The translations under genes and the position numbers were made by a program. The notes under the pieces were generated by a model. That model saw only the letters and a list, made by a program, of their open reading frames with translations, did not search any database and was not told where the DNA came from. A DNA stretch of 64,000 bases from an uncultured Myxococcales bacterium (GTDB lineage: Bacteria > Myxococcota_A > UBA9042 > CAIXZC01). Location of the stretch: contig CAITUV010000048.1 in the NCBI GenBank assembly GCA_903895725.1, forward strand, positions 8,474 through 72,473, read 5' to 3'. Positions 19,249 through 62,700 of this stretch are shown piece by piece (the stretch's first letter is position 1; every line of letters starts with the position of its first letter).

Positions 19249-22200
19249 ATGGAAAGACTCAGTCGACATCTCTGGCTTGTCTGCGGGATCGGCGGCGGCT
19301 TGCTGGCGTTCTCCTGCTCGTCGTCGAAGCCGGGGTCGAACCCGCATTTCGACATCGGACAACAAGACGTCCCGGGGGAAGACGGAAACGCTGACCGGGG
19401 CGGGCAGGACGAGCAGTTCGGCGACGGCACTCCACTACCCTATGACATCGGGGAGGCGGCGGCGTTGTGCATGCAGGAGCCGTTCGGGTTCGGCTGTCCA
19501 TGCGGAACCAATGCCCAGTGCGCCGGGGGGTTCTGCATGCAGAGTGAGTTCGGCTTCATCTGCACGCAGGAGTGCGTCGAGGAGTGCCCGGACCCGACCT
19601 ATGAATGCAAGGGCATCTCCGGCTTCGGCCCGGACGTGGTCTTCCTGTGCGTCCCCAAGGTCCAGCCCATGTGCCTGGAGTGTGAGCAGGACTACCAGTG
19701 CGGCGAGGGCGTCTGCGCCAAGATCGGGGACGGCAAGCATTGCACCGTGTCGTGCGGGCCGGACAAGCCCTGCCCGCTGGGCTACGTGTGCCCCGAGGGG
19801 ACCGTCGAGCCCACGTGCATGCCCGTCTCCGGGGATTGTGCGTGCATCCCCAAGACCGCTGGCGACCTGCGGACATGCGACGTGGTCAACGAGGACGGAG
19901 TCTGTGAAGGCGTCGAGGTGTGCGATGCCGAGCTGGGCTGGAGCGGGTGCACCGCAGGCGTTCCGGCTGCCGAGGTCTGTGACGGAGTCGACAACGACTG
20001 CAACGGAAAGGTGGACGACGCACTCGGAGCGCCTCCCGCCTGCAGTCAGGAGATTCCGGACGTGGGCAGCTGCCCGGGAGTGTCGATCTGCCTCGGTGCC
20101 GAGGGGTGGAAGTGCGATGCGCCCACGCCTTCGCCGGAAACCTGTGACTTCCAGGACAATGACTGCGACGGAGAGGTCGACGAGGACTTCAAGGCGGACG
20201 GGAAGTACGCGGCGCTGAACCACTGCGGAACGTGCAACCATGACTGTACCGGGACGCTGCCTCATGCCACGGCTTCCTGCGACGGGAGCAAGTCGATTCC
20301 GGTCTGCGTTGTGGAATCGTGCGACGAGGGTTACTTCCCGATCAACGAATTTCAGTGCCTCCCGCTGGGCCAGGTGCTGTGCAAGCCCTGCGCAGCCGAC
20401 ATCGAATGCCAGGGGGGAAGCTGCCTGGAGGTCTTTGGCGCGAGCTTCTGCTCGAAGAGCTGCGAAGCGGACCCCTGTCCCGAGACCTTTGAGTGCAAGG
20501 CGGTCGACGGTGCGGTGGGGCAGTGGTGTCTGCCCGTGACCGACACGTGCGACTGCTTCAGCGAGCTTGCGGGTACCGAGCGCCCCTGTCTCGCAACCGG
20601 CGATGAAGGGAGCTGTCCGGGCATGCAGACCTGCGACCCGCTGGTGGGATGGTCCGCATGCAGCGCCCAGCCACCGTCCGCCGAGGTTTGCGACGGGCTG
20701 GACAACGACTGCGACGGGGTCCCGGACGACGGCCTGGGAAACGCGGAGGCCTGCACCAAGTCCACTCCCGGCATCGGCACGTGCGACGGGGTGAAATACT
20801 GTGCGGGAGCGCCAGGGTGGGTGTGCGACGCACCGCAGCCCGCGCTCGAGACGTGCGACTACCTGGACAACGACTGTGACGGCGAGGTGGACGAGGGGTT
20901 CGTGATTGACGGCAAGTACACCACGGCGCAGCACTGCGGCGCCTGCAACAAGAGCTGCGACGGTGCGCTGCCCCACGCCACTGCCTACTGCGACACCTTT
21001 GCCCCCGTGCCCTCGTGCCGGGTGCTCGAGTGCGACCCGGGCTACTACAAGCTCAACGACCTGCAGTGCATCCTGCCCCAGGACACGGCCTGCAGTCAGT
21101 GCCTCGGGGACGATGAGTGCTTCTTCGCCAAGTGCGTGCCGCTGGCGGACGGCTCATTCTGCCTGAATCCGTGCGACGAGGGAGCCTGTGCCGAGGGATT
21201 CCAGTGCGAGGTCATCGAGGGCATCGGTGAAGCGTGCGTCCCGGACAGCGGAAGCTGCCTGTGCACCGAGGCGTCGAAGGGAACTCAGAAAGGATGCAGT
21301 CTCGGAAACGAGCACGGAGTGTGCTTCGGGTACGAGACGTGCGACCCGCCGCTTGGGTGGACAGGGTGCACCGCAGCGGTCCCTGCGGCAGAGGAGTGCG
21401 ACGGCGTGGACAGCGACTGTGATGGGCTCGTGGACGAGGGGCTTCCCGTCTCGCAGCCGTGCGACAACTCCAATGAGTTCGGAAGCTGTGCGGGGGAAGC
21501 CGTATGCTTTGGCCAGCAGGGGTGGCAGTGCCTGGCTGCCGTGCCGGTGGCGGAGCTCTGCAATTACAAGGACGATGACTGCGACGGGCTCGTGGACGAG
21601 GACTTCCGCGACGACGGGAAGTACACGAAGCTCGAGCACTGCGGGGTGTGCAACAACGACTGCACCGGCTCGATTCCGAACGCCACGGCCAAATGCGACA
21701 CGACGTATCTCCAGCCCAAGTGCGTCGTGGACCTTTGCGACGCAGGGTATGTCGCTGCCGGTCCATTCCAGTGCCTGAAGCCGCTCGACACCACGTGCCA
21801 GGCGTGCAAGAGCAATGCCGACTGCCTCGGGGGCGAGTGCGTGACCATCGACGGAGCCTTGCGGTGTGCGGCCGCGTGTGCGGACGATTCGGGCTGCGGA
21901 GGCGAGAACGCCTGCCTGCCTTACCCGGGCCTGGGCAAGCTCTGCCAGCCGATGTCGGGCAGCTGCGAATGCAACTCCGCATCCGCCGGAGGCAAGCAGT
22001 GGTGCTCCAGCTCCAATGAGTTCGGTACCTGCGTCGGCTTCAGGACGTGTGACCCAGCGAAGGGCTGGTCGGACTGCAACGCGGCCCTGGCCAAGCCCGA
22101 GGAGTGCAACGGCCTGGACGACAACTGCAACTCGCTGGTCGACGACGGGCTTCCCGAGAGCAAGGACTGCGAGAAGGGAAACCAATGGGGCTCCTGCAAG

Positions 22201-48890: not shown

Positions 48891-49119
48891 GGAAGTCACC
48901 TCCTTCAATCCGGCAGATGGTACTGTTCCGGGCCGAGCTGTCAATTCCGAGGGAGCGTCTCCCGTGCGGCAGGCCGTGCGGGACGCCGCAGGCGGGCGCA
49001 ACCGCTATCGAGCTGCCCGAAACTGCAGTCGGCTTGACGTGTGCGTGCGCCTGGGGGACGATACGGCCGACCTGGCGGGAGGGAGGCAGGTGGCGATCGA
49101 AGGGCGGACTGGCACACCG

Positions 49120-49923
49120 ATGTTTCAGCGAAGCGAGCTGCTGCTCGGTCCGACGACCGTGAAGGCACTCTGGGGCACCCGGGTGATTCTGTTCGGCGTC
49201 GGCGGGGTCGGGAGCTGGTGCGCTGAGGCGCTGGTAAGGAGCGGTGTTGGTCACCTGGCGATCGTGGACTCGGACAGCGTCTGTATCACAAACGTGAACC
49301 GGCAGCTCCAGGCGACGCCGGCGACGGTAGGCCGCATCAAGGTGGAGGTGCTGGCCCGACGACTGAGGGAGATAAGCCCCGACGCGGAGATCGTGGTCTT
49401 CCCGATTGCCTATGACGAGAGCACTTCGGACTCGTTCGGACTCGAGCGCTACGACTATGTGCTCGATGCCATCGATTCCCTGAGTCACAAGCTGGGGCTC
49501 ATCCGGAAGGCATTGTCGCTCGGGTGTCGGCTGTACTCGTCCATGGGCGCTTCGGCACGGCTCGACCCGACGAAGGTGAGGGTCGGGTCCCTCTGGAAGA
49601 CCCGAGATTGCCCGCTCGCCATGCGGGTTCGCAAGCGGCTCAGGAAGCACGGAATCACGACTGCTCTCACGGTGGTATACAGCGAAGAGCTGCCGATGGA
49701 GAGCCTGGAAACCTCGGATTGCGGGACTCCTGCCTGCCACTGTCCACGGCGGGCCATCGCTGAATCGGGCGAAGAGGTGGAGGGGCACGAATGGTGCAGC
49801 TCCAAAGCGTACATCAACGGTTCAATCATGCCGGTCGTGGCGACGTTCGGGATGTCCCTGGCGAGTCTCGTGATACGGGATGTGCTGGAGCGCAGCGGCG
49901 GCAGAGAGGGGAAGGGCCCATGA
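49120..49923 (+). CDS. tcdA: tRNA threonylcarbamoyladenosine dehydratase (ThiF/MoeB-family E1-like, TcdA/CsdL)
   Basis: 'ILFGVGGVGSWCAEALVRSGVGHLAIVDSDSVCITNVNRQ'. An alternative GTG start lies at 49090. The track start at 48703 overlaps the minus-strand gene. Confidence 0.8.
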   Translation: MFQRSELLLGPTTVKALWGTRVILFGVGGVGSWCAEALVRSGVGHLAIVDSDSVCITNVNRQLQATPATVGRIKVEVLARRLREISPDAEIVVFPIAYDESTSDSFGLERYDYVLDAIDSLSHKLGLIRKALSLGCRLYSSMGASARLDPTKVRVGSLWKTRDCPLAMRVRKRLRKHGITTALTVVYSEELPMESLETSDCGTPACHCPRRAIAESGEEVEGHEWCSSKAYINGSIMPVVATFGMSLASLVIRDVLERSGGREGKGP

Positions 49924-52088
49924 GTCGGCTTGCTGCGGTTTTGTGCATCGTGGCGGCTCTCGCGATTCCGGCAACGGCGGAGGCTGTGACGATGAGCCTC
50001 GTCAGTGAGAGCCAGCCGTTCCCCGGAATCACGCTGAAGCAGTACAAGACGACCTCGCCCAAGACCAACTGTTGGGCGGTGCTCGTCGACCTGTGCGCCG
50101 ACTACGTCCACGTGGATGCGACGCCGGATCCTTCCGGACCCAAGACCGTGGCGCAGTTCGGACAGGACTCGGGCGTCCAGGTGGCGGTCAACGGGGACTT
50201 CTACAAGTCGCCACCGGCCCACGTATACGGCGCCGCTGTCGGGGGAGGGATTCAGTGGCCGTCGGTCAAGCAGGGCTTTGACCCGAGCTACTCCGGCGAG
50301 TGGTTTTTCATGAAGTACGGCTGGCTCGCATTCGGACACGACCTGGTCGAGCACAACCACACGAAATGGGTCAAGCAGAACGTCGCCGGGCTGACCTCTG
50401 GCTGGGAGCCGACCGACGTGGTGACGTCGATTCCGGCTGGAACGCTGGCGCTGGTCAGCGGGTTCTCCCAGCTTGTGATTGATGGGGAGCCGGTGACCTG
50501 CCCGGACCCGACGGCCAGCAGCTGTTTCCCGGACCGCTCCGACATGCGGGATCGTCACCCTCGCACCGCCATGGGAATCACGGAAGATCGAAAGACCTTC
50601 ATCCTGTTCGTGGTCGACGGTCGGACCGATGTTTCCATCGGCATGTACGGGACCGAGCTGGCCGACGTGATGCACAAGCTGGGGGCGCACCAGGCCTTCA
50701 ACCTGGACGGTGGCGGGTCGAGCCAGCTCTGGGTGAAGGGCAAGGGGACGGTCAACGATGCCAACGGCAACAACAACGGCGGAGGCCTTCGCCCCGTGCT
50801 CAATCATTGGGGCGTTTTTGCAGGGCCCGCGAGCGGGAAGGCCAAGCGACCTGGCCATTGCGTGTCGAGCCCGGCATGCGCCGTGCTGCCTCCGGAAGGC
50901 GGTACGCTGGACGACTCCGGACCGTGTTTTGCTGCGTTTGGGACGCCGGAGTACTGGCGAACCGAGGCTGCTGGCTTCGAGGGGGGCCTGCACTGGACCA
51001 ATGCCTGGAAGACGACGGTCCCCGACAACTGGGCCTGGTGGCAGGTCCACCTGGCCGAGGGGGGTAAGTATCGGGTCGACTACTATGCGGTCCCTGAGTT
51101 CGCCGTGTTCAAGAAGACCCACTACGAGGTAAGGGCGTCGGGAACCTTGACGAAGCTCTCCGTGGATCAGTCGATTGCCGACGGTTGGACCGAGCTGGGG
51201 GAGTTCGACTTCTCGGCAGGCGGGGGGCAATGGGTGTCCGTCTTCGATGACACGCCGGCAACCGTTGCGGATGACCAGCACATCGTGGCGGATGCCATCC
51301 GACTGGTCCGCCTGGATCCGTGGTGTGGGAACGGGCAGTGCGACGGGACCGAGGAGTGCGGCTCGTGCGTCGAGGACTGCGGGGAGTGCCCCGAGCCTTG
51401 CGGCAACAGCGAATGCAAGGAGGGCGAGAGCTGCGAAACGTGCCCCGCCGACTGCGGAGACTGCCCCGAGAGCTGCGGCGACGGGTCGTGTGGGGCGGAG
51501 GAGAGCTGCAGCAGCTGCCCGGCTGATTGCGGGGAGTGCCCGGAAACATGCGGCAACGGGAGCTGCGCCTCGGGGGAGAGCTGCGAGAGCTGCCCCGAGG
51601 ACTGCGGGGAGTGCTCCGGCTCGTGCGGGAACGGTCTGTGCGACGCGTGGGAGAGCTGCGCCACCTGTCCGGCCGAGTGCGGCAACTGTCCCGATACCTG
51701 CGGCGACGGCCTGTGCGACGAGTGGGAGAACTGCGGAACCTGTCCGAAGGATTGCGGCTCCTGCGTTCCGGACGTTCAGGAAGCACGGCCCGAGAGCGAC
51801 ATTCAAAGCGAGCCCGAGCTGGTGCCGGAGACCCTCCCGGAAGCCGAGGTCCTTTGCGCCGGCGATGCCTGCCCCGTGCATGGTGACAGCGCGTCCTTTG
51901 AGGAGCCGTGGGAAGTGGCCCCGTCGGTCGAGCCGGCTCCGGAATCGAATGGCGATTCGGCGGGCAGCTGCAGTGCTGCGGTCCATCGACGCCCAGACAG
52001 CGGACCGGTCGCGCTCCTTGCTCTGGCCATGCTGCTCATCGCGATCATCCTGAGACGAAGGCCTTGCGGCGCTGGTGGAGCGGATTGA
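49920..52088 (+). CDS. Secreted protein with a phosphodiester-glycosidase (NAGPA 'uncovering-enzyme'-like) domain, a 6x25-aa CGxGxC-x-CPxDCGxC repeat array, a Pro/Glu linker, and a MYXO-CTERM-like C-terminal sorting signal
   Basis: ATGA overlap with tcdA. Signal peptide 'MSRLAAVLCIVAALAIPATAEA'. NAGPA-like 'GVQVAVNGDFY...RTAMGITEDRKTFILFVVDGR...AFNLDGGGSSQLWV'. Repeats 'CGNSECKEGESCETCPADCGDCPES'. C-terminal 'GSCSAAVHRRPDSGPVALLALAMLLIAIILRRRP'. Confidence 0.85.
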   Translation: MSRLAAVLCIVAALAIPATAEAVTMSLVSESQPFPGITLKQYKTTSPKTNCWAVLVDLCADYVHVDATPDPSGPKTVAQFGQDSGVQVAVNGDFYKSPPAHVYGAAVGGGIQWPSVKQGFDPSYSGEWFFMKYGWLAFGHDLVEHNHTKWVKQNVAGLTSGWEPTDVVTSIPAGTLALVSGFSQLVIDGEPVTCPDPTASSCFPDRSDMRDRHPRTAMGITEDRKTFILFVVDGRTDVSIGMYGTELADVMHKLGAHQAFNLDGGGSSQLWVKGKGTVNDANGNNNGGGLRPVLNHWGVFAGPASGKAKRPGHCVSSPACAVLPPEGGTLDDSGPCFAAFGTPEYWRTEAAGFEGGLHWTNAWKTTVPDNWAWWQVHLAEGGKYRVDYYAVPEFAVFKKTHYEVRASGTLTKLSVDQSIADGWTELGEFDFSAGGGQWVSVFDDTPATVADDQHIVADAIRLVRLDPWCGNGQCDGTEECGSCVEDCGECPEPCGNSECKEGESCETCPADCGDCPESCGDGSCGAEESCSSCPADCGECPETCGNGSCASGESCESCPEDCGECSGSCGNGLCDAWESCATCPAECGNCPDTCGDGLCDEWENCGTCPKDCGSCVPDVQEARPESDIQSEPELVPETLPEAEVLCAGDACPVHGDSASFEEPWEVAPSVEPAPESNGDSAGSCSAAVHRRPDSGPVALLALAMLLIAIILRRRPCGAGGAD
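51324..51764 (+). repeat. Six tandem 75-bp (25-aa) coding repeats, CG(N/D)GxCxxxExCxxCPxDCGxCPxx
   Basis: Periodicity visible at both DNA and protein level. Confidence 0.7.
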
Positions 52089-52142
52089 CAACGGGCTTGC
52101 GCGTGTGGTTTGCTGGCAGGAAGGTTGACGGTGGAGGTCGGC

Positions 52143-55100
52143 ATGATCGCACGGAAGCACTTCTGGCTCGTTGCTTCGCTCCTGTTTTCTGCCGGATGCG
52201 GCGGCGGGGGAGAGATCATCTCGATCGAGGATGTTGCGCTGGACCAGGCGGGAGAGACTGCGGACGCGGTCATGGCTCCCGAGGTCTCCGAGGCCGCGGC
52301 GGACCTCGTCCCCATCCCGGATGCGACACCCGAAGCAGCAGTCGATGCCACGCTGCCGGACGGCTGGGTCGAGCCCGGCGCGTTTGGAGCCCCGTGCTTT
52401 GGCGGGACCGATTGTGCCTCAGGGCTCTGCATCCGGACGACGGCCGGCATGCAGTGCACGGGGCCGTGCGTCGACGAGTGCCCGCAGGGGTTCAAGTGCG
52501 TTTCGTACGAGGGAGGCGGGCCGGACATCATGTTCGTGTGCGTCGATCCGTTCCTGACCCTGTGCCGTCCCTGCTCGACCAATGCGGACTGCCAGGGCAA
52601 CGAGGATGCGTGGGCGGGGGAGCGGTGTGCGTCCTACGGTGCTGCCGGCAGCTTCTGCTCCATGCCGTGTGCGCAGGTGGACGACTGTCCGGCAGGCTAC
52701 CTCTGCGAGGAGACCGTGGATTCAAGCGGGGCATCGTCGCTCCAGTGCGTGCTGGCCGAGGGCGAGTGCGAATGCCCGCAGTGGTTTGCGGACGAGGGGG
52801 CTTCGACCTCGTGCTTCGTGGAGAACGAGTGGGGAACGTGCTCCGGTACGCGGGCCTGCACGGCAGCGGGGCTGGCGGCGTGCACGGCAGCGGTCCCGGC
52901 CAAGGAGAGCTGCAACGGGCTCGACGATGACTGCGACGGCCAGGACGACGAGGAGACTGCAGGCGGAACCTGCCCCGTCGTCAACGAGCTCGGCACCTGC
53001 CCGGGCACCACGCTCTGCCTGGACGGAACCGAGACCTGCCAGGGCGCTGCCGCGGCCCCGGAGCAGTGCGACGGGTTGGACAACAACTGTAACGGTACCA
53101 AGGACGAGGGGTTCCCCGATGCAGACGGGGACGGGACCGCAGATTGCCTGGAGAACGACAAGGACAACGACCTGGTGCCGGACTACCTCGACAACTGCCC
53201 GTCGGTGGCCAACTCGGAGCAGAAAGACTTCGACCTGGATACCCTGGGCGATGCGTGCGATCCCGACGACGACGGCGACAAGACCGGGGATGCAACGGAT
53301 TGTGCCCCGCTCGACGACAAGGTGTACCCCGGTGCGACCGAGACCTGCGACGGCAAGGACAACGACTGCAACTACGTTGTGGACGAAGGGTTCCCGGATG
53401 CCGACGTCGACGGCTGGAAGGACTGCACCGACCCGGACGACGACAACGACGGCAGCGCGGATGCTGCAGACTGTATGCCGCTTGACGCGGAGGCTCACCC
53501 CGGTGCAGTCGAGACCTGCAATGGCAAGGACGACGACTGCGACTTTGCCATCGACGAGACCTTTCCCGATCTGGATGGCGACGGACAGGCGGACTGCGTG
53601 GACAGCGACGTCGACGGCGACGGTCTCGGCAACGGCGACGACAACTGCCCCCAGGTCGCCAACGCGGATCAGACCGACCTCGACGGCGACCAGGTAGGCG
53701 ATGCCTGCGACCCGGACAAGGACGGCGACGCCATCCCCGAGCTTGCGGACAACTGCCCGCTTACCAAGAACCCGGCCCAGGCCGATACCGACCAGGATGG
53801 ACAGGGCGATGCCTGCGACGATGACGACGACGGCGACGGCTACGGCGACGGCGCCGACAACTGCCCGCTTGCCAAGAACCCGTCCCAGGCCGACCTCGAC
53901 CAGGATGGCGTCGGAGACGCGTGCGAGGGGGATCTGGACGGTGACGGTACTCCGGATTCCCTCGACTGTGCGCCGCTGAACGCCACCGTGCACCCCGGGG
54001 CATTCGAGGCCTGTAACGGCGCGGACGACAACTGCAATGGAACCGTGGACGAGGGGGCACCGGACACGGACTTCGACGGTTTCAAGAACTGTGTCGACCC
54101 GGACGATGATGGGGACGGCGACCCGGATGACGCGGACTGTGCGCCGCTCAACCTTGCGGTGCACCACGCTGCGGTCGAGAGCTGCAACGCCATCGACGAT
54201 GATTGCGACGGCCAGATCGACGAGGGGCTCGGGGCACTTTCGTGCGGGAAGGGCGTGTGCGCTCACAAGATTCCCGCCTGTCTCGACGGCAAGCAGCAGA
54301 CTTGCGATCCATTCCAGGGAATCCAGGAAGAAGTGTGCGACGGCAAGGACAACGATTGCGATGGGTTGACGGACGAGGACCAGGGCAAGCTGACGTGCGG
54401 CCTCGGGACGTGCGTGCACACCGTACCCGCCTGCCAGGAGGGGAAGGACAACGTGTGCGACCCCGCAGCCGGTGCCGTCCAGGAAGTGTGTGACGGCAAG
54501 GACAACGACTGCGATGGGGCGGTGGACGAGGAGCTGGGACAGCTCGCCTGCGGCAAGGGCGTCTGCTTCCATACGGTCAAAGCCTGCATCGGCGGAGAGC
54601 CTCAGCCATGCGAACCGTTCCAGGGAGCTTTGCCCGAAGCCTGTGACGGGCTGGACAACGACTGCGACGGAAGCGTCGACGAGAATCTGGGGGAGACATC
54701 CTGCGGCCTGGGTCCCTGCGAGCACACGGTCCCCTACTGTGCCGGGGGCAAGGTGCAGCAGTGCAACGCGTTCGAGGGCGCTGCCGTCGAGGCCTGCGAC
54801 AGCGTGGACAACGACTGCGACGGGCTGGTCGACGAGGACATGGGGTTTGCGAGCTGCGGTCTGGGCGTCTGCTTCCACATCGTCAAGCTCTGCTCCGGCG
54901 GGGTGCTCCAGGTGTGCGATCCGCTGGAGGGCGCTGCCGGGGAGGCGTGCGACGGCGTGGACAACGACTGCGATGGCATCGCCGATGACGGGTTGGGCGA
55001 CATCACCTGCGGCCTGGGGGAGTGCGTCCACACGGTTCCCGTCTGCAAGGAGGGCAAGCAGAACAGCTGTGATCCGCTCGAGGGGGAATCCCCCGAGGCG

Positions 55101-55955
55101 TGCGACGGCAAGGACAACGATTGCGACGGTCAGACGGACGAGTCCTTCGCCGACCAGGACGGCGACGGCCAGGCAGACTGCGTCGATCTCGACGACGATG
55201 GCGACGCGGATCCGGATGGGACGGACTGTGCACCGCTCGATCCGACCATCGGCTCCAACCAGAAGGAGAAGTGCTTCGACGGCAAGGACAACGACTGCGA
55301 CGGAAGCACCGACGACGATCCGGAGTGCATTCTCAAGAGCTGCGCCGAGCTCCTGGCCTCGAACCCCGCACTGCCGTCGGGGACCTACACGATTGACCCG
55401 GACGGCGGGGGCGGGAAGCCCTCGTTCGCCGCGTGGTGCGAGATGGCGCTGGACGGAGGGGGCTGGACCCTGGTCTGGAAGCACTCCTACTACGAAGTGG
55501 GGGCACCGACGGACACCATGCGCTTCTACAGCACCAGCGCAAAGGAGTGCAAGGACACGACGGCCGGATGGTGCAATGTGCCGGGCAAGCTGTCCGTTGG
55601 CAAGACGCAGCAGCTCGTCATCGCCACCTACCAGGGGACGACCGTTTACGCTTACAAGGGGGACTTGAATCCCAAGATCGACTCGAGCTGGGAAGGCGCC
55701 ATACTCAAGAACGCAACCAGCCTGGTCGACAAGTGCGTCAACAACGTGGGAGTGGCCCCGGAGCCCGAGGTGGGAGGGCATGCGATGCCCGGCATCACGT
55801 TCGACAAGGCGACCCCCAACGACTATGTGTCCAATTGCGATACGGATCGGTACGGAGGGGGCTCGGATTGCCGCTGGGAGAACTGCGGTCTGCCGGGAAA
55901 CATCGCCCCCTCGAGCACTCACGTGCAGATGACCGTGATGATCTACGTGCGCTGA
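52143..55955 (+). CDS. Cys-rich lipoprotein with a thrombospondin type-3 repeat array, seven or so MopE-like CDGKDNDCDG modules, and a C-terminal fibrinogen-related domain (FReD)
   Basis: RBS GGTGGAGG. 'MIARKHFWLVASLLFSAGCGGGG'. TSP3: 'DNCPSVANSEQKDFDLDTLGDACDPDDDGD', 'DNCPQVANADQTDLDGDQVGDACDPDKDGD', 'DNCPLAKNPSQADLDQDGVGDACEGDLDGDG'. FReD: 'CAELLASNPALPSGTYTIDPDGGGGKPSFAAWCEMALDGGGWTLVWKHSY...'. Confidence 0.85.
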   Translation: MIARKHFWLVASLLFSAGCGGGGEIISIEDVALDQAGETADAVMAPEVSEAAADLVPIPDATPEAAVDATLPDGWVEPGAFGAPCFGGTDCASGLCIRTTAGMQCTGPCVDECPQGFKCVSYEGGGPDIMFVCVDPFLTLCRPCSTNADCQGNEDAWAGERCASYGAAGSFCSMPCAQVDDCPAGYLCEETVDSSGASSLQCVLAEGECECPQWFADEGASTSCFVENEWGTCSGTRACTAAGLAACTAAVPAKESCNGLDDDCDGQDDEETAGGTCPVVNELGTCPGTTLCLDGTETCQGAAAAPEQCDGLDNNCNGTKDEGFPDADGDGTADCLENDKDNDLVPDYLDNCPSVANSEQKDFDLDTLGDACDPDDDGDKTGDATDCAPLDDKVYPGATETCDGKDNDCNYVVDEGFPDADVDGWKDCTDPDDDNDGSADAADCMPLDAEAHPGAVETCNGKDDDCDFAIDETFPDLDGDGQADCVDSDVDGDGLGNGDDNCPQVANADQTDLDGDQVGDACDPDKDGDAIPELADNCPLTKNPAQADTDQDGQGDACDDDDDGDGYGDGADNCPLAKNPSQADLDQDGVGDACEGDLDGDGTPDSLDCAPLNATVHPGAFEACNGADDNCNGTVDEGAPDTDFDGFKNCVDPDDDGDGDPDDADCAPLNLAVHHAAVESCNAIDDDCDGQIDEGLGALSCGKGVCAHKIPACLDGKQQTCDPFQGIQEEVCDGKDNDCDGLTDEDQGKLTCGLGTCVHTVPACQEGKDNVCDPAAGAVQEVCDGKDNDCDGAVDEELGQLACGKGVCFHTVKACIGGEPQPCEPFQGALPEACDGLDNDCDGSVDENLGETSCGLGPCEHTVPYCAGGKVQQCNAFEGAAVEACDSVDNDCDGLVDEDMGFASCGLGVCFHIVKLCSGGVLQVCDPLEGAAGEACDGVDNDCDGIADDGLGDITCGLGECVHTVPVCKEGKQNSCDPLEGESPEACDGKDNDCDGQTDESFADQDGDGQADCVDLDDDGDADPDGTDCAPLDPTIGSNQKEKCFDGKDNDCDGSTDDDPECILKSCAELLASNPALPSGTYTIDPDGGGGKPSFAAWCEMALDGGGWTLVWKHSYYEVGAPTDTMRFYSTSAKECKDTTAGWCNVPGKLSVGKTQQLVIATYQGTTVYAYKGDLNPKIDSSWEGAILKNATSLVDKCVNNVGVAPEPEVGGHAMPGITFDKATPNDYVSNCDTDRYGGGSDCRWENCGLPGNIAPSSTHVQMTVMIYVR
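53157..53950 (+). repeat. Thrombospondin type-3-like Ca-binding repeat array (D-x-D-x-D-G-x-x-D-x-C / DNCP-x-x-x-N-x-x-Q-x-D)
   Basis: Motif recognition; see the parent CDS. Confidence 0.7.
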
Positions 55956-55992
55956 GCAGAAGGTGACAGTCTTTCAACCGGGAGATGCCGTC

Positions 55993-58900
55993 ATGACCAC
56001 TCGCAAGCTGTTTCGGATTACGCTCCTGAGCGTTCTCGTTCCGGCCGTCGGATGCAGCACTTCAGGCAACACGGTGGAGAAACCGGAGCCGGATCTCGGC
56101 ATCGAGGTCGTCGACTCCAGCGTCGCTCCGGAAGTCGTACCCCCGGATGCCATGGAAGTCGAGCCCGAGGTGCCTCAGGTCGAGTTGCTCGTTGAGGCCG
56201 TGGAGGAATCGGGTGGCCCGAAGTGCGCACCGGGCGAAGGGTGCTTCCTGGACCCATGCCAGGAGAACGATTCCTGCCAATCGGGCTGGTGCGTGGACCA
56301 CATGGGGGCCGGAGTCTGCACCATTGCCTGCGAGGAGGAGTGCCCTCCCGGCTGGTCGTGCCAGCAGATCGGCTCGGGTCCCGACGTGAACTACGTCTGC
56401 ATCTCGAACCACGCAAACCTTTGCCGGCCTTGCGGCAGCGGGGACAACTGCAAGAGCCCGGGGGGTGCGGAGGACGTGTGCGTGGACTACGGTGCGGAGG
56501 GCAGCTTCTGCGGGGGAACCTGCAACAGCGACGAGGATTGCCCCTGGGGTTTCTCGTGCATCGAAGCCTCCACGGTGGATGGAATCGAAGTGAAGCAATG
56601 CGTGGCCGATGCGGGAGTCTGCCCGTGTACCGAAAAGTCCGTGAGCCTGGCATTGTGGACCCCTTGCCAGAGCAGCAACGAGCACGGCGTGTGCCAGGGG
56701 CAGAGGGTGTGTACCGAGGCCGGGCTGTCCGCGTGTGACGCGGCTGTGCCCGCACAGGAATCGTGCAACGGCATCGACGATGATTGCGACGGGGAGGTCG
56801 ACGAGCCGCAGCAGGTGGGCGGAGAGTATATTTCGCTCTGCTCGGACGGGAATTCGTGCACGAAGGATCAGTGCGCGGGCGTTGACGGCTGCACTAACAC
56901 GGCGCTCAACGAGGGCGAGTGCATGGACGGAGATGCGTGCACCGTGGGGGACCATTGCCAGGAAGGGACGTGCGTGGGGCTCCCTGTCGCCTGCGATGAC
57001 GGTGACCCCTGCACCGACGACCTGTGCGACGGACTGGGAGGCTGCAAGACCGAGTTCAACACCGCTGCGTGCGACGACGGAGATGCGTGCACGGTCGCGG
57101 ATGGCTGCGTCGAGGGGGTGTGCGGCGGCGTTGCCGTCCCTTGTGAGTGCCAGGCGGATTCCGATTGCCTGTCACTCGAGGATGGCGATGTCTGCAACGG
57201 GACACTGTTCTGCGACAAGGGGAAGTGGCCGTATCTTTGTGCGGTCGAGCCGGGAACCGAAATCACGTGCCCGCTGCCGCCGGCCGGGAAGGATGCGTTC
57301 TGCCAGGCCACTGCGTGCGACAGCGGGACCGGGAAGTGCTCAATCGTCCCGGCTCACGAGGGTTTCGCCTGTGATGACGGGGATGCCTGCACCATCGGTG
57401 AGCACTGCGCCTCCGGAACCTGCGGCCAGGGGGCCGGGCTCGGATGCCAGGACGACAATCCCTGCACGGACGACTCGTGCGAGCCTGGCGTCGGGTGCAT
57501 CCACAAGGCGAACGCTGCACCGTGCAGCGACGGGAACGTGTGCACGACGGACGACATGTGCTCGGCCACTGTATGCGTCGGCGGAGCGCTTCTGGCCTGC
57601 GACGACGGCTCGGTGTGCACCGGCACGGAGACCTGCGATCCTTCCGTCGGCTGCAAAGCGGGCCTCTCCCTCGTGTGCGATGATCAGGACGCCTGCAACG
57701 GAAAGGAGAGCTGCCACCCGGCCAAGGGGTGCCTGGCCGGAATCCCTCCGGTTTGTGACGACTTGAACCCATGTACCGACGACTCGTGCGACCCTCTGTC
57801 GGGGTGCGTTCACAAGGGGAATACCGCCGCCTGTGACGACGGCAACGCCTGCACCACGGGGGACAAGTGCTCGGCAGGAAGCTGCCTCGCCGGTGAGGCG
57901 ACAAGCTGCAACGACGGCAATCTCTGCACGACCGACACCTGCGTGCCGGCCAAGGGATGCATGTTCCTGCTCAACACGGTCCCGTGCGACGACGGCGACT
58001 TGTGCACGACCGGGGACCATTGCTCCCTGGGGGCCTGCATCTCGTCGGGGAAGCTGACCTGCAACGACGGGAATCCGTGCACGGCCGACTCGTGCACCCC
58101 CGGAGCCGGCTGCCAGTTCGTGCCCACCTCGGCCGCGTGCGACGACGGCAATGCGTGCACCTCGGGCGATGCCTGCACCAAGGGCCAGTGCCTCGGGCCG
58201 GACGTGGTGAGCTGCGACGACGACAATGTCTGCACGAAGGACTTCTGCTCCCCGTTGACCGGCTGCGGGCACAGCCCTCTGGCCGGGCCGTGTGAGGACG
58301 GGACCGAGTGCAGCGTCGGGGATACCTGCCAGAACGGAGTGTGCGTGGCCGGGCCACCGCTCGCCTGCGACGATGGGAACCAGTGCACCGTCGACGTCTG
58401 CGACCCCAAGCTGGGGTGCGTGTACAAGGCATTCGTGGGAGGCTGCGACGACGGAAACCCGTGCACCCTGGTGGATGTGTGTCAGGGCACGGTCTGCGCA
58501 CCCGGGTTGCCCAAGGACTGCAACGACGACAACCAGTGCACTACGGACACCTGCGACCCGGCCAAGCTGTGCGTGAACAGCCCGAAGGCCGGCAACTGCG
58601 ACGACAGCAACGCGTGTACGACGGGAGAGGCCTGCCAGGCGGGCGTCTGCAAGGGGGGCACCCCCCTGGACTGCAACGATGGGAAGCCGTGCACGACCGA
58701 CTCGTGCGACCCCCTCCTGGGGTGCGGACACATCGACACTGTCCCGTGCTGCGGGAATGCCAAGCTCGAGGCGGGCGAGGAGTGCGACGACGGAAACATC
58801 GTGGGCGGGGACGGATGCGAGCCTGACTGCAAGCAGTTCACCCCGGTCAGCGTGACGTTCAACAACTGTGGGCAGACGGGCCCGTCGGGGCCAAACCAGA

Positions 58901-59682
58901 GCCAGTGCAACAGCGCCTACTCGGGCAACCCGCTCCTCAACGGCAAGGTGACCGTCACTGCCGGCATCCAGTTCTGGACCGTGCCGTACACCGGGACCTA
59001 CCGGATCGAGGCTTTCGGAGCCAGGGGCGGCTGCAACGGCGGCAACGGTGCGCGGATGCGGGGCGATTTCGCCCTGACTCAGGGCACCCAGCTCAAGATT
59101 CTGGTCGGACAGCAGGGATCGGCTGCCCCCGCAAGCGTGGGCAACGGAGGTGGCGGTGGGACGTACGTGGCGAAGGCCGACAATGCCCCCATCATCGTTG
59201 CGGGCGGCGGTGGAGGAACGGGGCACGATTGCTACGCGGACTACGACATGAGCGGAGTCACCGGCATCGATGGAATCAAGGGCAAGTACGAGACCGCCGG
59301 GCTGGGCGGAGTGAACGGACAGGGCGGCGGATACGGGCTGACCACCCAGGGCGTTCCCAACGCCGGCGGTGGCGGCGGCTTCTACGGGGACGGCGGGAGC
59401 ATCGGACATGCCAATGGCGGGAAGGCCTTCGTGAACGGAGGCGTGGGCGGCTCCACGACCGGAGGATTCGGCGGCGGCGGCGGCTCGGACCAGTTCATCT
59501 ACGGCTGCGGCGCATCGCCACACGGCGGCAGCGGCGGCGGAGGCTACTCGGGCGGCGGCGGCGGCGCAACGAACTGCAACGGCCCGGGCGGTGGCGGCGG
59601 CTCCTACAACAACGGTGCCAACCCGTCCAACTCAGCTGGCGCCAATTCGGGGCACGGCAGCGTGACCATCAATCGCATCTGA
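55993..59682 (+). CDS. Cys-rich lipoprotein with about 13 Dictyostelium-type (CTDC) repeats, one Myxococcus cysteine-rich repeat, and a C-terminal ALK/LTK-like glycine-rich (GlyR/TNF-like) domain
   Basis: 'MTTRKLFRITLLSVLVPAVGCSTSG'. CTDC: 'CDDGNPCTDDSC', 'CSDGNVCTTDDMC', 'CNDGNLCTTDTC', 'CDDGNQCTVDVC'. Myxococcus cysteine-rich repeat: 'CCGNAKLEAGEECDDGNIVGGDGCEPDC'. GlyR: 'FNNCGQTGPSGPNQSQCNSAYSGN...GIQFWTVPYTGTYRIEAFGARGG...LKILVGQQG...GGGGGTYVAK...IIVAGGGGG...GGFGGGGGS...GGGGYSGGGGG'. Confidence 0.85.
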   Translation: MTTRKLFRITLLSVLVPAVGCSTSGNTVEKPEPDLGIEVVDSSVAPEVVPPDAMEVEPEVPQVELLVEAVEESGGPKCAPGEGCFLDPCQENDSCQSGWCVDHMGAGVCTIACEEECPPGWSCQQIGSGPDVNYVCISNHANLCRPCGSGDNCKSPGGAEDVCVDYGAEGSFCGGTCNSDEDCPWGFSCIEASTVDGIEVKQCVADAGVCPCTEKSVSLALWTPCQSSNEHGVCQGQRVCTEAGLSACDAAVPAQESCNGIDDDCDGEVDEPQQVGGEYISLCSDGNSCTKDQCAGVDGCTNTALNEGECMDGDACTVGDHCQEGTCVGLPVACDDGDPCTDDLCDGLGGCKTEFNTAACDDGDACTVADGCVEGVCGGVAVPCECQADSDCLSLEDGDVCNGTLFCDKGKWPYLCAVEPGTEITCPLPPAGKDAFCQATACDSGTGKCSIVPAHEGFACDDGDACTIGEHCASGTCGQGAGLGCQDDNPCTDDSCEPGVGCIHKANAAPCSDGNVCTTDDMCSATVCVGGALLACDDGSVCTGTETCDPSVGCKAGLSLVCDDQDACNGKESCHPAKGCLAGIPPVCDDLNPCTDDSCDPLSGCVHKGNTAACDDGNACTTGDKCSAGSCLAGEATSCNDGNLCTTDTCVPAKGCMFLLNTVPCDDGDLCTTGDHCSLGACISSGKLTCNDGNPCTADSCTPGAGCQFVPTSAACDDGNACTSGDACTKGQCLGPDVVSCDDDNVCTKDFCSPLTGCGHSPLAGPCEDGTECSVGDTCQNGVCVAGPPLACDDGNQCTVDVCDPKLGCVYKAFVGGCDDGNPCTLVDVCQGTVCAPGLPKDCNDDNQCTTDTCDPAKLCVNSPKAGNCDDSNACTTGEACQAGVCKGGTPLDCNDGKPCTTDSCDPLLGCGHIDTVPCCGNAKLEAGEECDDGNIVGGDGCEPDCKQFTPVSVTFNNCGQTGPSGPNQSQCNSAYSGNPLLNGKVTVTAGIQFWTVPYTGTYRIEAFGARGGCNGGNGARMRGDFALTQGTQLKILVGQQGSAAPASVGNGGGGGTYVAKADNAPIIVAGGGGGTGHDCYADYDMSGVTGIDGIKGKYETAGLGGVNGQGGGYGLTTQGVPNAGGGGGFYGDGGSIGHANGGKAFVNGGVGGSTTGGFGGGGGSDQFIYGCGASPHGGSGGGGYSGGGGGATNCNGPGGGGGSYNNGANPSNSAGANSGHGSVTINRI
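56839..58735 (+). repeat. Array of about 13 Dicty_CTDC-like repeats (C-x-D-x-N-x-C-T-x-D-x-C, about 48 aa period)
   Basis: See the parent CDS. Confidence 0.7.
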
Positions 59683-59687
59683 GAAGA

Positions 59688-59705
59688 GTCCCGCGATCAC
59701 GGGAC
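59688..59705. terminator. Hairpin GTCCCG-cgatca-CGGGAC between convergent gene ends. It overlaps the stop codon of the minus-strand gene.
   Basis: Perfect 6-bp stem. Confidence 0.2.
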
Positions 59706-62700
59706 GTAGCAGAGGGTTCCTTCGGGCACGTATCCAAGCGCCTGCGCTTCGCTCCACTCCTGCTGGCTGGTGGACACGAAGTGGTCGGAGGCTGCAACAC
59801 TGTATAGGCGGCGCAGCTCCTTGGATGCCTCGGGAATCGGGTTGGCCGCGCAATAGCCCAGCACCCCCTCGTCCTGGTAGGCGGGAGCGCCTTCGTTGCC
59901 GTCCAGGCTCTGGAGGTGATCGAAGCAGCCGCTGCAGTAGAGCTGATGCAGCGCCACGAGCCCCGGGGCCGGTCCGTCGAACAGTGTGAAGTGCTGTCCC
60001 TCGAAGGCGTACCCGGCAGGCGCAGTCGTGTCGGACTTGAACATGTGGTCCGAGTCGCCGCCCTTGTTGCCGTAGAAGCGATAGATGGGGTGCGTCCCGG
60101 GCAGACATGGCAGCTTCTCGTGCTGGCACCCGGCTGCACCGGCGCAGGTATCCATGGTGCACGGATCGCCGTCGTCGCAGTCAGCGTCCTTTCCACATCC
60201 TGGCGCCCCGTTGGCGAACACGCGCACGCGGGCAACCACGCGCACGTTCCCATCGGTATCGGAGGCGGCAATTTCCAGCAGGTGAGGGCAGGGGGACCAG
60301 TCTCCGAGCGGCACGTCCGCCTCGAACCCCACCTGGTTGCACATCGTGTACCCGGGGTAGACCTGGCAGACATCGGGCCGCTGGGTATTGAGCGGAAGCG
60401 AGGCGACCTGCACACCGTCCCTGCGCAGTGCCAGCGAAGCGATTCCCTTGTTGTCCAACGCCCAGCCGGTCACGTGCAGCGTCCCGGAGACGGCCGCATC
60501 CATCTTGGGCGCGTCCAGGGCACCGAACGGGGGCAGCTTGGCATCAAGTGCAGCGGCCTCGGACGCAATCGTTCCGAACGCACCCAGGATCAGGTAGGCC
60601 CTGGCCTTGACCTTGCCGAACGCAGGCAGAGCGAACGAGAACTGCGAGCGAACGTTGTTGAACACCCCGAGCTTCTGCCAGCCCTGGAAGCCGGTCAGCC
60701 GGTTCTCATAGTAGATGCCTACGCCGTAGTCCTTGGACGCGTTCTGCAGCGCAACCCAGCCGCCGGGGCTGGTGAAGTTCTTGAAGTAGAAGCCATCGTT
60801 GCCCGGCCCGTCGACGATGATCTGCTGGCCGTTGGAATCGAGCAGCACCTTGAGGTCCGCCGTTCCACCGGCTCCGTAGACGGCATAGAGCGTTGGGAAC
60901 TCCTGTCCCGTGGCCGGGTGGTCCAGGTCGGACAGGTTTTCCACCGTCATCTTCATCTCGACCACGTGGGTGGCCACGAATCGGAGCCGCTGGGTGTAGG
61001 AGACGTCGCTCTTCATCGCCTTCTTGCCCGGGTCCGAGCAGCCGCCATTCGCACAGGTCGGCTCTTTCCAGTCGGGGTTCCAGAAGAGCGGGCGTACGCC
61101 GGCTTCCAGGATGCCGGGGGCGACGTTGATCCACTCGGTGCCGGAGCCGATGTTGCACTCGTTGCCCCCCTGGACGGGATCCCACCCGAGGTAGGTGATG
61201 CTGGACGGGCACGCCGCCCCCGGATTCGATTGGCAAGTGGCATTCCAGGCGCACCCCTGCATCGCACGAAGCGGATCATAAAGGGCGATCTGGACTTCGC
61301 GGCCGGTATCGTTGGCGTCGATGGTGTTGGTCGTGTTCATTCCCGGCTTCCCCTTGGCCAGGCCGAAGAAGACGATCGTGGAACCCCATTCCCGCCGCGT
61401 GCCCACCTTGATGTAGGAAGTCGGGTCGTGGACATAGTCATCGGTGAAGCCGCCCTCCTTGACCGTTTCGGCAGGGCCCGCTGGCGACAGTGCCCCAAGG
61501 GGATCTTCGGACACGGGCTCGGGCTTGGGAACGTCGATGCAGCCTGCCGCAAAGATGCAGGCTCCTTCCTGGCACACGTAGTCGGGAGGGCAGGCGCCGC
61601 ACGAGCCTGCGCACCCGTCATCTCCGCACTGCTTGCCTCCGCACTGGGGAACGCAGGGGGCCTGCTTGCACGTGCCGCCCTCGCAATCCAGGCCCGGTGG
61701 ACATGCGCCGCAGAAGCCTCCGCAGCCGTCGTCACCGCACTGCTTCCCCTCACACAGCGGTGTGCAGGTGTCCGCAGCCAGGTCGGCCGCCGCATCGGGT
61801 GACTGGCTGTCCTCAACGTCCGCTGGCAGTGTATCCGTGATGAGGGTGTCGGTCGGTCCTGGCGTTTCATCCTTGGGGCTGCCGTCCGGCCCGGCGTCGG
61901 GCTCGGGGGCGTCAAGCAGCTTGATATCGCCAGGGGCGTCCGCAGCCGCAGAGTCGAACGACGTGTTGACCTGATCCTTCGGTTCGTATGAATCATCCGG
62001 AACCATGGCCTCGGGCTCTGGCTGCCGGTCTCCGCTCCCATCCGGGACGTGGGAGGGCACGTCGGCGCCGGGGAAGAGCAGGACATCGGCATCCGCCGAG
62101 CTGCCCCCGGACACGCTTCCGCAGGCCGCAAGGAACAGGGCCGCGAGGAGAAGGCCAAATCCCCCTCTCCAGTGACCGCAGCCTGTCCCGGCTTGTGCCC
62201 CCCGACCACAGCGGGCCCGACTTCCCGAGCCTGGACCACCAATGCCCGAACCTCCTGCCACAGGAGCACGAAAGCGACGAATCACGCCGAGCATTGCCCC
62301 CCCGAGGAGGAGCAGGATCCAAACCGACGCGCCCTCGGAGGGCCCAGGTGCCGCCGAGCAGCCGCCGCTCTTCTTGCCAGAGCCGCCGTCGCCGCTGTGC
62401 CCATCGGCTGGAACCGTGAACCATCCGTCGCCTGCGCCCCCGATTTCCGCGGTGCCATCCTGATTCTCGAGTTCCGACTTGCCGGCCATGCCATCTGCCG
62501 GGAGCACCTCCCCCGCGGCGGAATCCAGCGCCGGGATTTCCGGACCCGGTCCGGAATCCGGGGCCGGCCCCGGCAGGTCGGCGACAAGGTCGGGCTGGCC
62601 CGCACCATCCGGGGCCTCGACGTCCTGCGGCATCCAGTCCTCCTCCTCTACGACATCCGGCGGAGGGCAGGTCGAGACGCACTCTCCCCAGCTCCCGTCG

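Follow-up and report, generated by a model that had tools for sequence, protein, structure and literature searches.

Whether the acidic centre of a very large predicted protein encodes genuine thrombospondin type 3 (TSP3) repeats, and what such repeats would do in a bacterium, is the question raised by a gene of an uncultured Myxococcales bacterium. The gene lies in a 64,000-nucleotide stretch of contig CAITUV010000048.1 (GenBank assembly GCA_903895725.1), referred to here as the window, and an initial annotation had read seven or more repeats of the thrombospondin and COMP pattern at positions 53157-53950. We find that this region does encode genuine TSP3 repeats: four 36-residue units in a one-plus-three arrangement, together with leading half-motifs. 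The best explanation, to which we give a probability of about three in four, is that these units form part of a Ca2+-dependent stalk in a lipoprotein with a lectin-like tip, calcium binding being predicted.

The identity of the repeats is clear from both profile and sequence searches. On the whole protein, the Pfam TSP_3 profile (PF02412) scores 94.2 bits (E=3.7e-27; gathering cut-off 25) in five stretches, and four sub-fragments each pass the same cut-off alone (37.9-47.2 bits); the tail past unit 4 reaches merely 14.4 bits, under the cut-off. A phmmer search of all PDB sequences returned only COMP (3fby, 1.5e-52), thrombospondin-2 (1yo8 and 2rhp, ~1e-48) and thrombospondin-1 (1ux6, 1.2e-20). 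The three tandem units with their leading loop are 58.7% identical to residues 189-311 of human COMP (71 of 121 positions). Thus the likeness to thrombospondin and COMP claimed in the initial annotation is borne out, COMP and thrombospondin-2 and -1 ranking at the top by sequence and by fold, and the Pfam profile search that it had proposed as a check came out as TSP_3 rather than as generic Asp-rich low complexity.

It is nevertheless worth considering whether generic Asp-rich low complexity, or simply more modules of the MopE type, has been mislabelled as TSP3. Aspartate makes up 29% of the interval, HMMER flags high composition bias on the PDB matches, and two modules within the annotated coordinates are indeed MopE and not TSP3. 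However, 2000 shuffles of residues 331-640 yielded no occurrence of the strict motif against four observed, and a shorter core motif arose 0.034 times per shuffle, again against four; because it is absent from the shuffles, the strict motif is not a by-product of the Asp content. The positions that are not Asp (Cys, Pro, Asn, Gln and Gly) are conserved as well, 36 of the 82 positions with Asp in neither sequence being identical to COMP, and a structure-based search ranks the thrombospondin wires first. All four units carry DxDxDGxxDxxD, NxxQxD and two Cys per 36 residues. The shuffles, the conserved non-Asp positions and the passing of the Pfam cut-off by all four fragments rule out a low-complexity artefact, and we leave this explanation next to no probability. 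A dockerin or EF-hand reading was also rejected, Dockerin_1 matching at just E=0.9, which is chance level.

The number of units is smaller than originally described. The pattern DNCP-x3-N-x2-Q-x-D-x-D-x-D-x2-GDAC-D-x-D-x-DGD occurs exactly four times in the protein by regular-expression search, with all copies on the plus strand: unit 1, DNCPSVANSEQKDFDLDTLGDACDPDDDGDKTGDAT, at 53190-53297 (residues 350-385; 47.2 bits as a fragment on Pfam TSP_3), unit 2 at 53640-53747 (residues 500-535; 45.8 bits), unit 3 at 53748-53855 (residues 536-571; 37.9 bits) and unit 4 at 53856-53963 (residues 572-607; 46.1 bits). Units 2-4 make up a tandem block of three 36-residue units (53640-53963), supported by Pfam TSP_3, by the identity to COMP and by alignment to positions 100-246 of the NCBIfam model of MtsC. 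The array is discontinuous: between unit 1 and units 2-4 lie two MopE-type modules (53298-53567, plus strand) of the form DCxPLDxxxxPGAxExCxGKDxDC, with DxDxDG loops of their own, which score 38.0 and 30.7 bits on PF11617 (Cu-binding_MopE; cut-off 27). Neither of these two MopE fragments matches Pfam TSP_3 at E<=1. The motif, frame and place given in the initial annotation stand, then, and its count of seven or more repeats gives way to four copies interrupted by MopE modules. A regular-expression map places 13 DxDxD-type acidic loops in the interval 53157-53950, and these may be the source of the higher count.

Additional acidic loops lead into both parts of the array. Those before unit 1 (DADGDGTADC-LENDKDNDLVPDYL, 53118-53189, plus strand) resemble C-type TSP3 half-motifs and lie inside a TSP_3 stretch that aligns to model positions 2-36 in the fragment 53097-53306; their Asp and Cys residues are invariant in 51 sequences. 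Those before unit 2 (DLDGDGQADC-VDSDVDGDGLGNGD, 53568-53639, plus strand) fall within the TSP_3-positive fragment 53562-53747, and the COMP and thrombospondin-2 alignments start at DVDGDG, taking these loops in. At the DNA level, Tandem Repeats Finder reports a 108-nucleotide tandem repeat of two copies with ~80% matches beneath units 3 and 4 (53697-53947). The whole array is read from a single long plus-strand open reading frame (ORF), with which position 53157 is in frame, and the interval 53157-53950 corresponds to residues 339-602, its translation opening DKDNDLVPDYL-DNCPSVANSEQKDFDLDTLGDACDPDDDGD. The listed ORF begins at a TTG at 52110; we set the coding sequence at 52143-55955, stop codon included, because the 1270-residue product from the ATG at 52143 is identical to a database protein (P0001).

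Conservation across the family falls on the same residues that define the motif. A search of 5.8 billion proteins recovered more than 100 full-length relatives of ~1270 residues at 50-60% identity, those with a name being called 'hypothetical protein'. When the protein is aligned with 50 relatives, no unit shows any substitution at the motif Asp residues, the two Cys, the Asn or the Gln across the 51 sequences. The consensus of 520 family units is DNCPxxxNPxQxDxDxDGxGDACDxDxDGDGxxD, with motif positions conserved at 96-100% and most remaining positions variable; Asn8, Asp26, Asp28 and Asp30 are conserved at 99-100% even though the regular expression did not impose them. The units are thus under strong purifying selection at precisely those positions that, in solved homologues, bind calcium or make up the disulfide.

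The predicted structure of the region is also that of a wire. An AlphaFold2 model of 53097-54140, which was built with the family alignment and contains no ions, has a predicted local distance difference test score (pLDDT) of 92.4. By DSSP, its 348 residues include three 3-residue helical turns and otherwise neither helix nor strand, and this near-absence of secondary structure is what one expects of a wire organised by cations. In a Foldseek search of the PDB, COMP (1e-28), thrombospondin-2 (9e-28) and thrombospondin-1 (1.5e-14; 53% identity over 117 columns) came first, and the periplasmic, TSP3-bearing part of Capnocytophaga OmpA (5wtl, 3.5e-5) came next. The Foldseek alignment to COMP covers 329 of the 348 modelled residues, MopE modules included. 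MopE modules 3-5 (53298-53567 and 53964-54182) are each followed by DxDxDGxxDC-xDxDDDxDG loops like the C-type half-motifs of TSP3. There are hints here that the MopE-type and TSP3 units may be structurally related.

By analogy with the solved TSP3 structures of thrombospondin, COMP and OmpA, each unit would wrap Asp and Asn side chains around Ca2+ and be stapled by a disulfide between its two Cys. On the same analogy, the TSP3 segment would be expected to fold and stiffen only in an oxidising compartment and with its calcium bound. Solved thrombospondin wires reportedly hold about two ions per half-motif. A putative signal peptide with the lipobox MIARKHFWLVASLLFSAG directly followed by Cys19 (52143-52199, plus strand; Cys19 at 52197-52199) was recognised by a PROSITE-type pattern, and the lipobox pattern recurs in 96 of 120 homologues, with a median Cys position of 18 and a +2 residue that is mostly G or S. 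The protein is thus predicted to be a bacterial lipoprotein, and the lipoprotein signal implies export to an oxidising compartment. The mature chain contains 105 Cys.

Beyond the TSP3 units, the protein is built largely of MopE modules and ends in a distinct domain. From the N-terminus to the C-terminus, the modules are two MopE cores, TSP3 unit 1, two MopE modules, TSP3 units 2-4, two MopE modules, six 51-residue units and a MopE core. MopE module 5, with its flanking DxDxDG loops, and the N-terminal part of module 6 lie at 53964-54182 (plus strand; PF11617 45.1 bits, with limits from the regular-expression map), and the same map places the six 51-residue units, each a MopE core plus a CGxGxCxHxxxxC knot, and then the MopE core at 55101-55127, within 54183-55130 (plus strand). 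Over the whole protein PF11617 reaches 178.4 bits against a cut-off of 27, in 12 stretches of which two are inside the interval originally annotated as TSP3, and the MopE modules that the initial annotation had placed downstream are therefore present. The fibrinogen-related domain (FReD) that it had also placed there was likewise recovered as the 205-residue tip of the protein (55338-55952, plus strand), which NCBIfam, AlphaFold2 and Foldseek identify as a fibrinogen-related, intelectin-like domain. The NCBIfam model GGGWT_bact (NF040941), a bacterial head motif of fibrinogen-like proteins, scores 60.9 bits against a cut-off of 30. Pfam Fibrinogen_C stays below its cut-off of 22 on this domain (16.7-20.6 bits), only the first ~48 profile positions aligning, and the best PDB sequence match is XEEL intelectin (4.6e-5). 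The AlphaFold2 model of the tip (pLDDT 91.9; predicted template modelling score 0.90) matches intelectin-1, XEEL, tenascin, ficolin and FIBCD1 in Foldseek with probability 1.00, at template modelling (TM) scores of 0.45-0.54 and 12-17% identity. A fibrinogen-related fold of the C-terminal tip is thus supported by modelling.

This architecture bears on what the TSP3 units may be for. The large majority of 120 homologues share one module order, abbreviated mmTmmTTTmm(km)x6, and the C-terminal tip differs completely between relatives in which the stalk is conserved at 50-60% identity. It is because the module order is conserved while the tip changes completely that we read the TSP3/MopE region as a stalk. 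The Ca2+-loaded TSP3/MopE segment and the six MopE-knot units would together form an extended, protease-resistant stalk, which would keep the lectin-like tip of fibrinogen-related fold away from the lipid-anchored N-terminus. The protein may then be a cell-envelope adhesin or recognition protein in which the rigidity of the stalk depends on calcium. Within TraB of Myxococcus xanthus, TSP3 repeats serve to connect domains, and for TraA of myxobacteria a stalk made of Cys-rich repeats has been put forward (PMC12045341, PMC6372800).

Several observations weigh against reading the array as a stalk at the cell surface. The thrombospondin wire is wound around a lectin domain, which this protein lacks, and the present array is both short, with four units, and interrupted. 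Global TM-scores to the thrombospondin wires are just 0.20, local units matching and the overall path of the chain differing. The solved bacterial precedent, OmpA (5wtl), has its TSP3 repeats in the periplasm. The spacer role is deduced from the module architecture, and surface exposure is putative.

The OmpA precedent raises an alternative in which the lipoprotein faces the periplasm and the TSP3/MopE region serves as a Ca2+-dependent linker within the envelope, with no surface display. Capnocytophaga OmpA is the only solved bacterial TSP3 structure, and our model matches it at E=3.5e-5, as given above; the TSP3 repeats of TraB likewise sit between its barrel and its OmpA domain, and a lipobox by itself does not specify surface exposure. 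However, the protein has no OmpA or peptidoglycan-binding domain, and its mature chain of ~1250 residues is far longer than any envelope linker. Dozens of unrelated tips and tandem paralogues would suit diverse external ligands better than one periplasmic target, and the array matches animal wires strongly in sequence whereas 5wtl is not found by sequence at E<=0.01. We consider a periplasmic tether unlikely.

A different possibility is that the TSP3 units are not a passive spacer and instead form a Ca2+-dependent adhesion or docking surface themselves, binding exopolysaccharide or a partner protein in the manner of dockerins and cellulosomes. Ligand sites, RGD/KGD motifs among them, are indeed present in thrombospondin type 3 repeats (PMC6526912), the TSP3 repeats of bacteria are found both in secreted glycanases and in dockerin-rich giant proteins linked to attachment, and the one-plus-three arrangement is strictly conserved. 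Yet the units here contain neither RGD nor KGD, the Dockerin_1 match is at chance level (E=0.9), and the variability of most residues outside the Ca2+-ligand, Cys, Asn and Gln positions across the 520 family units argues against a conserved ligand surface. Most paralogues also differ in copy number, within a range of 3 to 9, which is in line with a spacer; some paralogues enlarge the tandem block to six to eight TSP3 units, giving 7-9 in total. A binding role for the units themselves is, on balance, improbable to much the same degree as the periplasmic tether, and the calcium-dependent stalk of a lipoprotein with a lectin-like tip remains the reading that we prefer.

How, then, does this protein compare with known TSP3 proteins? 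Like the thrombospondin and COMP wires (3fby, 1yo8, 2rhp and 1ux6), the array is made of 36-residue units with an N-type half, DNCPxxxNxxQxD, and a C-type half, DxDxDGxGDxCDxDxDxDG, with two Cys per unit and no regular secondary structure. Unlike them, it has four canonical units split one plus three by MopE modules, in place of a continuous wire of ~13 motifs after EGF-like repeats, and it belongs to a bacterial lipoprotein, in place of an oligomeric secreted animal glycoprotein. Pfam finds no match to TSP_C (L-type lectin) in the protein at E<=0.01, the C-terminus being fibrinogen-related instead; the Pfam scan of the protein holds no EGF families and nothing corresponding to a coiled-coil oligomerisation domain, for which no dedicated coiled-coil prediction was run. 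We rejected an identity with thrombospondin on the lack of TSP_C and EGF domains and on the fibrinogen-related fold of the C-terminus. The suggestion in the initial annotation that the protein looks like an extracellular-matrix glycoprotein is therefore apt for the types of module and less so for the molecule, which lacks those two domains, carries a bacterial lipoprotein signal and has a Myxococcales-like host.

Bacterial envelope proteins also offer parallels. In OmpA of Capnocytophaga gingivalis (5wtl) and TraB of M. xanthus, TSP3 repeats with a Cys pair inside each repeat likewise belong to an envelope protein of a Gram-negative bacterium, calcium binding being predicted or shown there, but the present protein lacks a beta-barrel and an OmpA peptidoglycan-binding domain, and the sequence of its array is much closer to animal wires than to 5wtl. 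Pfam and NCBIfam scans of the protein contain no OmpA families, and an OmpA-type identity was rejected because no OmpA-like peptidoglycan-binding domain follows the repeats. MtsC (NCBIfam NF047638), a MYXO-CTERM protein of M. xanthus cell-cell cohesion, is a myxobacterial envelope protein whose model aligns with the TSP3 region at model positions 100-246; only the repeat region matches, however, and MtsC has a C-terminal MYXO-CTERM tag where the present protein has an N-terminal lipobox. No MYXO-CTERM model is reported for the protein, which ends in the fibrinogen-related domain. An MtsC orthologue is ruled out, since the whole protein (136.7 bits) and its TSP3 fragment (155.9 bits) both fall far short of the equivalog cut-off of 350, and only the type of repeat is shared.

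Secreted enzymes and recognition proteins provide two further comparisons. Lam16A of Saccharophagus degradans (GH16/CBM6/CBM6/TSP3x4; PMC2386152) resembles the present protein in using about four TSP3 units as a module of a large secreted multi-domain protein, some such proteins having a lipobox, whereas the secreted bacterial glycanases differ in that here there is no catalytic or CBM domain and the partners are MopE modules and a fibrinogen-related tip. In TraA (PMC6372800), a conserved Cys-rich stalk is proposed to display a variable recognition domain on the myxobacterial cell, much as we envisage here, but no sequence relationship is shown and the polarity is opposite, the present protein having an N-terminal lipid anchor and a C-terminal tip. 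Its tip is also headed by a fibrinogen-related motif rather than a PA14-like one, and the variation is between paralogues and not alleles. Other precedents for bacterial TSP3 repeats include TraB, the S. degradans glucanases with four TSP3 modules (PMC2386152), giant Omnitrophota proteins and the crystal structure of OmpA (5wtl; Dai et al. 2017). Bacterial TSP3 arrays are already well documented, and the array described here adds another case of a known module.

The remainder of the protein includes a Cys-rich N-terminal domain with no assigned fold (residues 75-262, 52365-52928, plus strand), which is 39% identical to the N-terminus of the downstream gene and has no Pfam, NCBIfam or PDB sequence match. 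This domain of ~190 residues is found in five large genes of the window (at 52365-52928, 3578-4126, 8907-9437, 19477-19995 and 56239-56781), three of which hold further internal copies. It matches 1812 representative clusters at E<=1e-10 and, among the 150 matches listed, mostly lies near the N-terminus.

The gene is packed between two others on the plus strand. The upstream gene (49791-52088) encodes a phosphodiester glycosidase (NAGPA) domain, a Golvesin_C domain, consecutive Cys repeats of the CGxCPExCG type and, at the C-terminal end, a hydrophobic segment, and it is not syntenic in the orthologous locus with 79% identity (L001). The downstream gene (55993-59682) encodes 1229 residues, of which the N-terminal 270 are 39% identical to those of the array protein; this lipoprotein N-terminal domain is followed by Dicty_CTDC and myxo_disulf_rpt repeats and a Gly-rich C-terminal region. 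Three relatives of the array protein (P0013, P0018 and P0037) end in a similar Gly-rich domain and not in the GGGWT tip. Five further very large predicted proteins (939-1861 residues) are encoded at 283-24651, three with MopE motifs, one with an FGE-sulfatase domain and a Dicty_CTDC repeat, and one with GH141, beta-helix and CBM6/35 domains. Giant secreted proteins rich in Cys seem to be abundant in this genome.

Other potential features of the locus were negative. No Pfam families were found in an antisense ORF at 52722-55922 (1066 residues) or in the ORFs at 52582-53697, 53701-53979 and 53840-54193, and we take these antisense and other-frame ORFs to be high-GC (guanine-plus-cytosine) artefacts and not genes. 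No Rfam families occur in 49000-60500, and a scan for promoters and terminators gave nothing above shuffle expectation. The closest genomic matches are metagenome-assembled genomes (MAGs) labelled 'Deltaproteobacteria bacterium' (79% identity, with the downstream gene conserved) and 'uncultured Myxococcales bacterium'.

The diversity of the tips is a further aspect of the family. Among 101 relatives that share a CxM..GGGWT head of ~45 residues, the 120-200 residues after the head fall into 30 clusters unlinked by BLAST, and profile-profile comparison (hhalign) of the ten largest tail clusters links one pair only. That comparison of ten clusters does not show a common fold for all tips; all tails do end in a hydrophobic-x-hydrophobic-[RK] terminus. 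One 'uncultured Myxococcales' MAG has at least eight family genes on five contigs, including two runs of three in tandem (L003 7242-19516 and L005 6092-17437) in which each gene has the mmTmmTTT... stalk. The tips of the family genes in that MAG have little or no detectable similarity where the tails are comparable. The tip type present in the window (55323-55952) has few bacterial relatives and shares ~48% identity with secreted proteins of two sponges, Corticium candelabrum and Dysidea avara, as well as with ~50 ENA ORFs, of which one that was examined (L010 5989-6513) stands alone in gene-poor DNA of 41-45% GC. A neighbour-joining tree, rooted at its midpoint and carrying no support values, places the bacterial tips in a single clade adjacent to the Corticium group.

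These relationships make it necessary to ask whether recent horizontal transfer from an animal supplied the TSP3 block as well as the tip, so that the protein would mimic the extracellular matrix of a host. The 58.7% identity to human COMP and the ~48% identical homologues of the tip in sponge genomes would be in keeping with such an origin. GC content, however, is uniform (63-67% across the window and ~66% at the gene), and the MtsC model from M. xanthus recognises units of this type at 137-156 bits. Furthermore, of the 120 listed family members, which all come from bacterial MAGs or metagenomes, only one lacks TSP3 units, and a strong constraint from Ca2+ ligation can explain the high identity. 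Recent acquisition of the TSP3 block from an animal thus seems highly improbable, and we retain the view of the array as part of a calcium-dependent stalk.

A broader reading would place the TSP3 wire as the conserved stalk part of a large unannotated family of Myxococcota lipoproteins with interchangeable tips, forming a diversified recognition or lectin repertoire in which the tip type of the window has been exchanged with sponges. Taken as a whole we regard this only as a tentative proposal, one that is rather less likely to be right than wrong. Its logic is comparable to that of TraA or of the diversified fibrinogen-related lectins of invertebrates. The observations on the tips suggest both a diversified repertoire of recognition proteins and a possible exchange between animals and bacteria, and they establish neither.

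As a TSP3 array alone, the region adds little to what is known, because the module is well established in the envelope and secreted proteins of bacteria; this array can be annotated confidently. Its use lies in showing cleanly how close a bacterial TSP3 array can come to an animal wire (59% identity to COMP), and on account of that similarity it could serve as a tractable model for the Ca2+-dependent folding of such wires, including the COMP region that is mutated in pseudoachondroplasia. The larger value lies in the context, in which a lipid anchor and a conserved calcium- and disulfide-dependent stalk are combined with swappable tips that have a fibrinogen-related head, one of them shared with sponges. 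Should the family function in recognition, it would point to an undescribed, diversified lectin-like repertoire in uncultured myxobacteria and to possible gene exchange between animals and bacteria.

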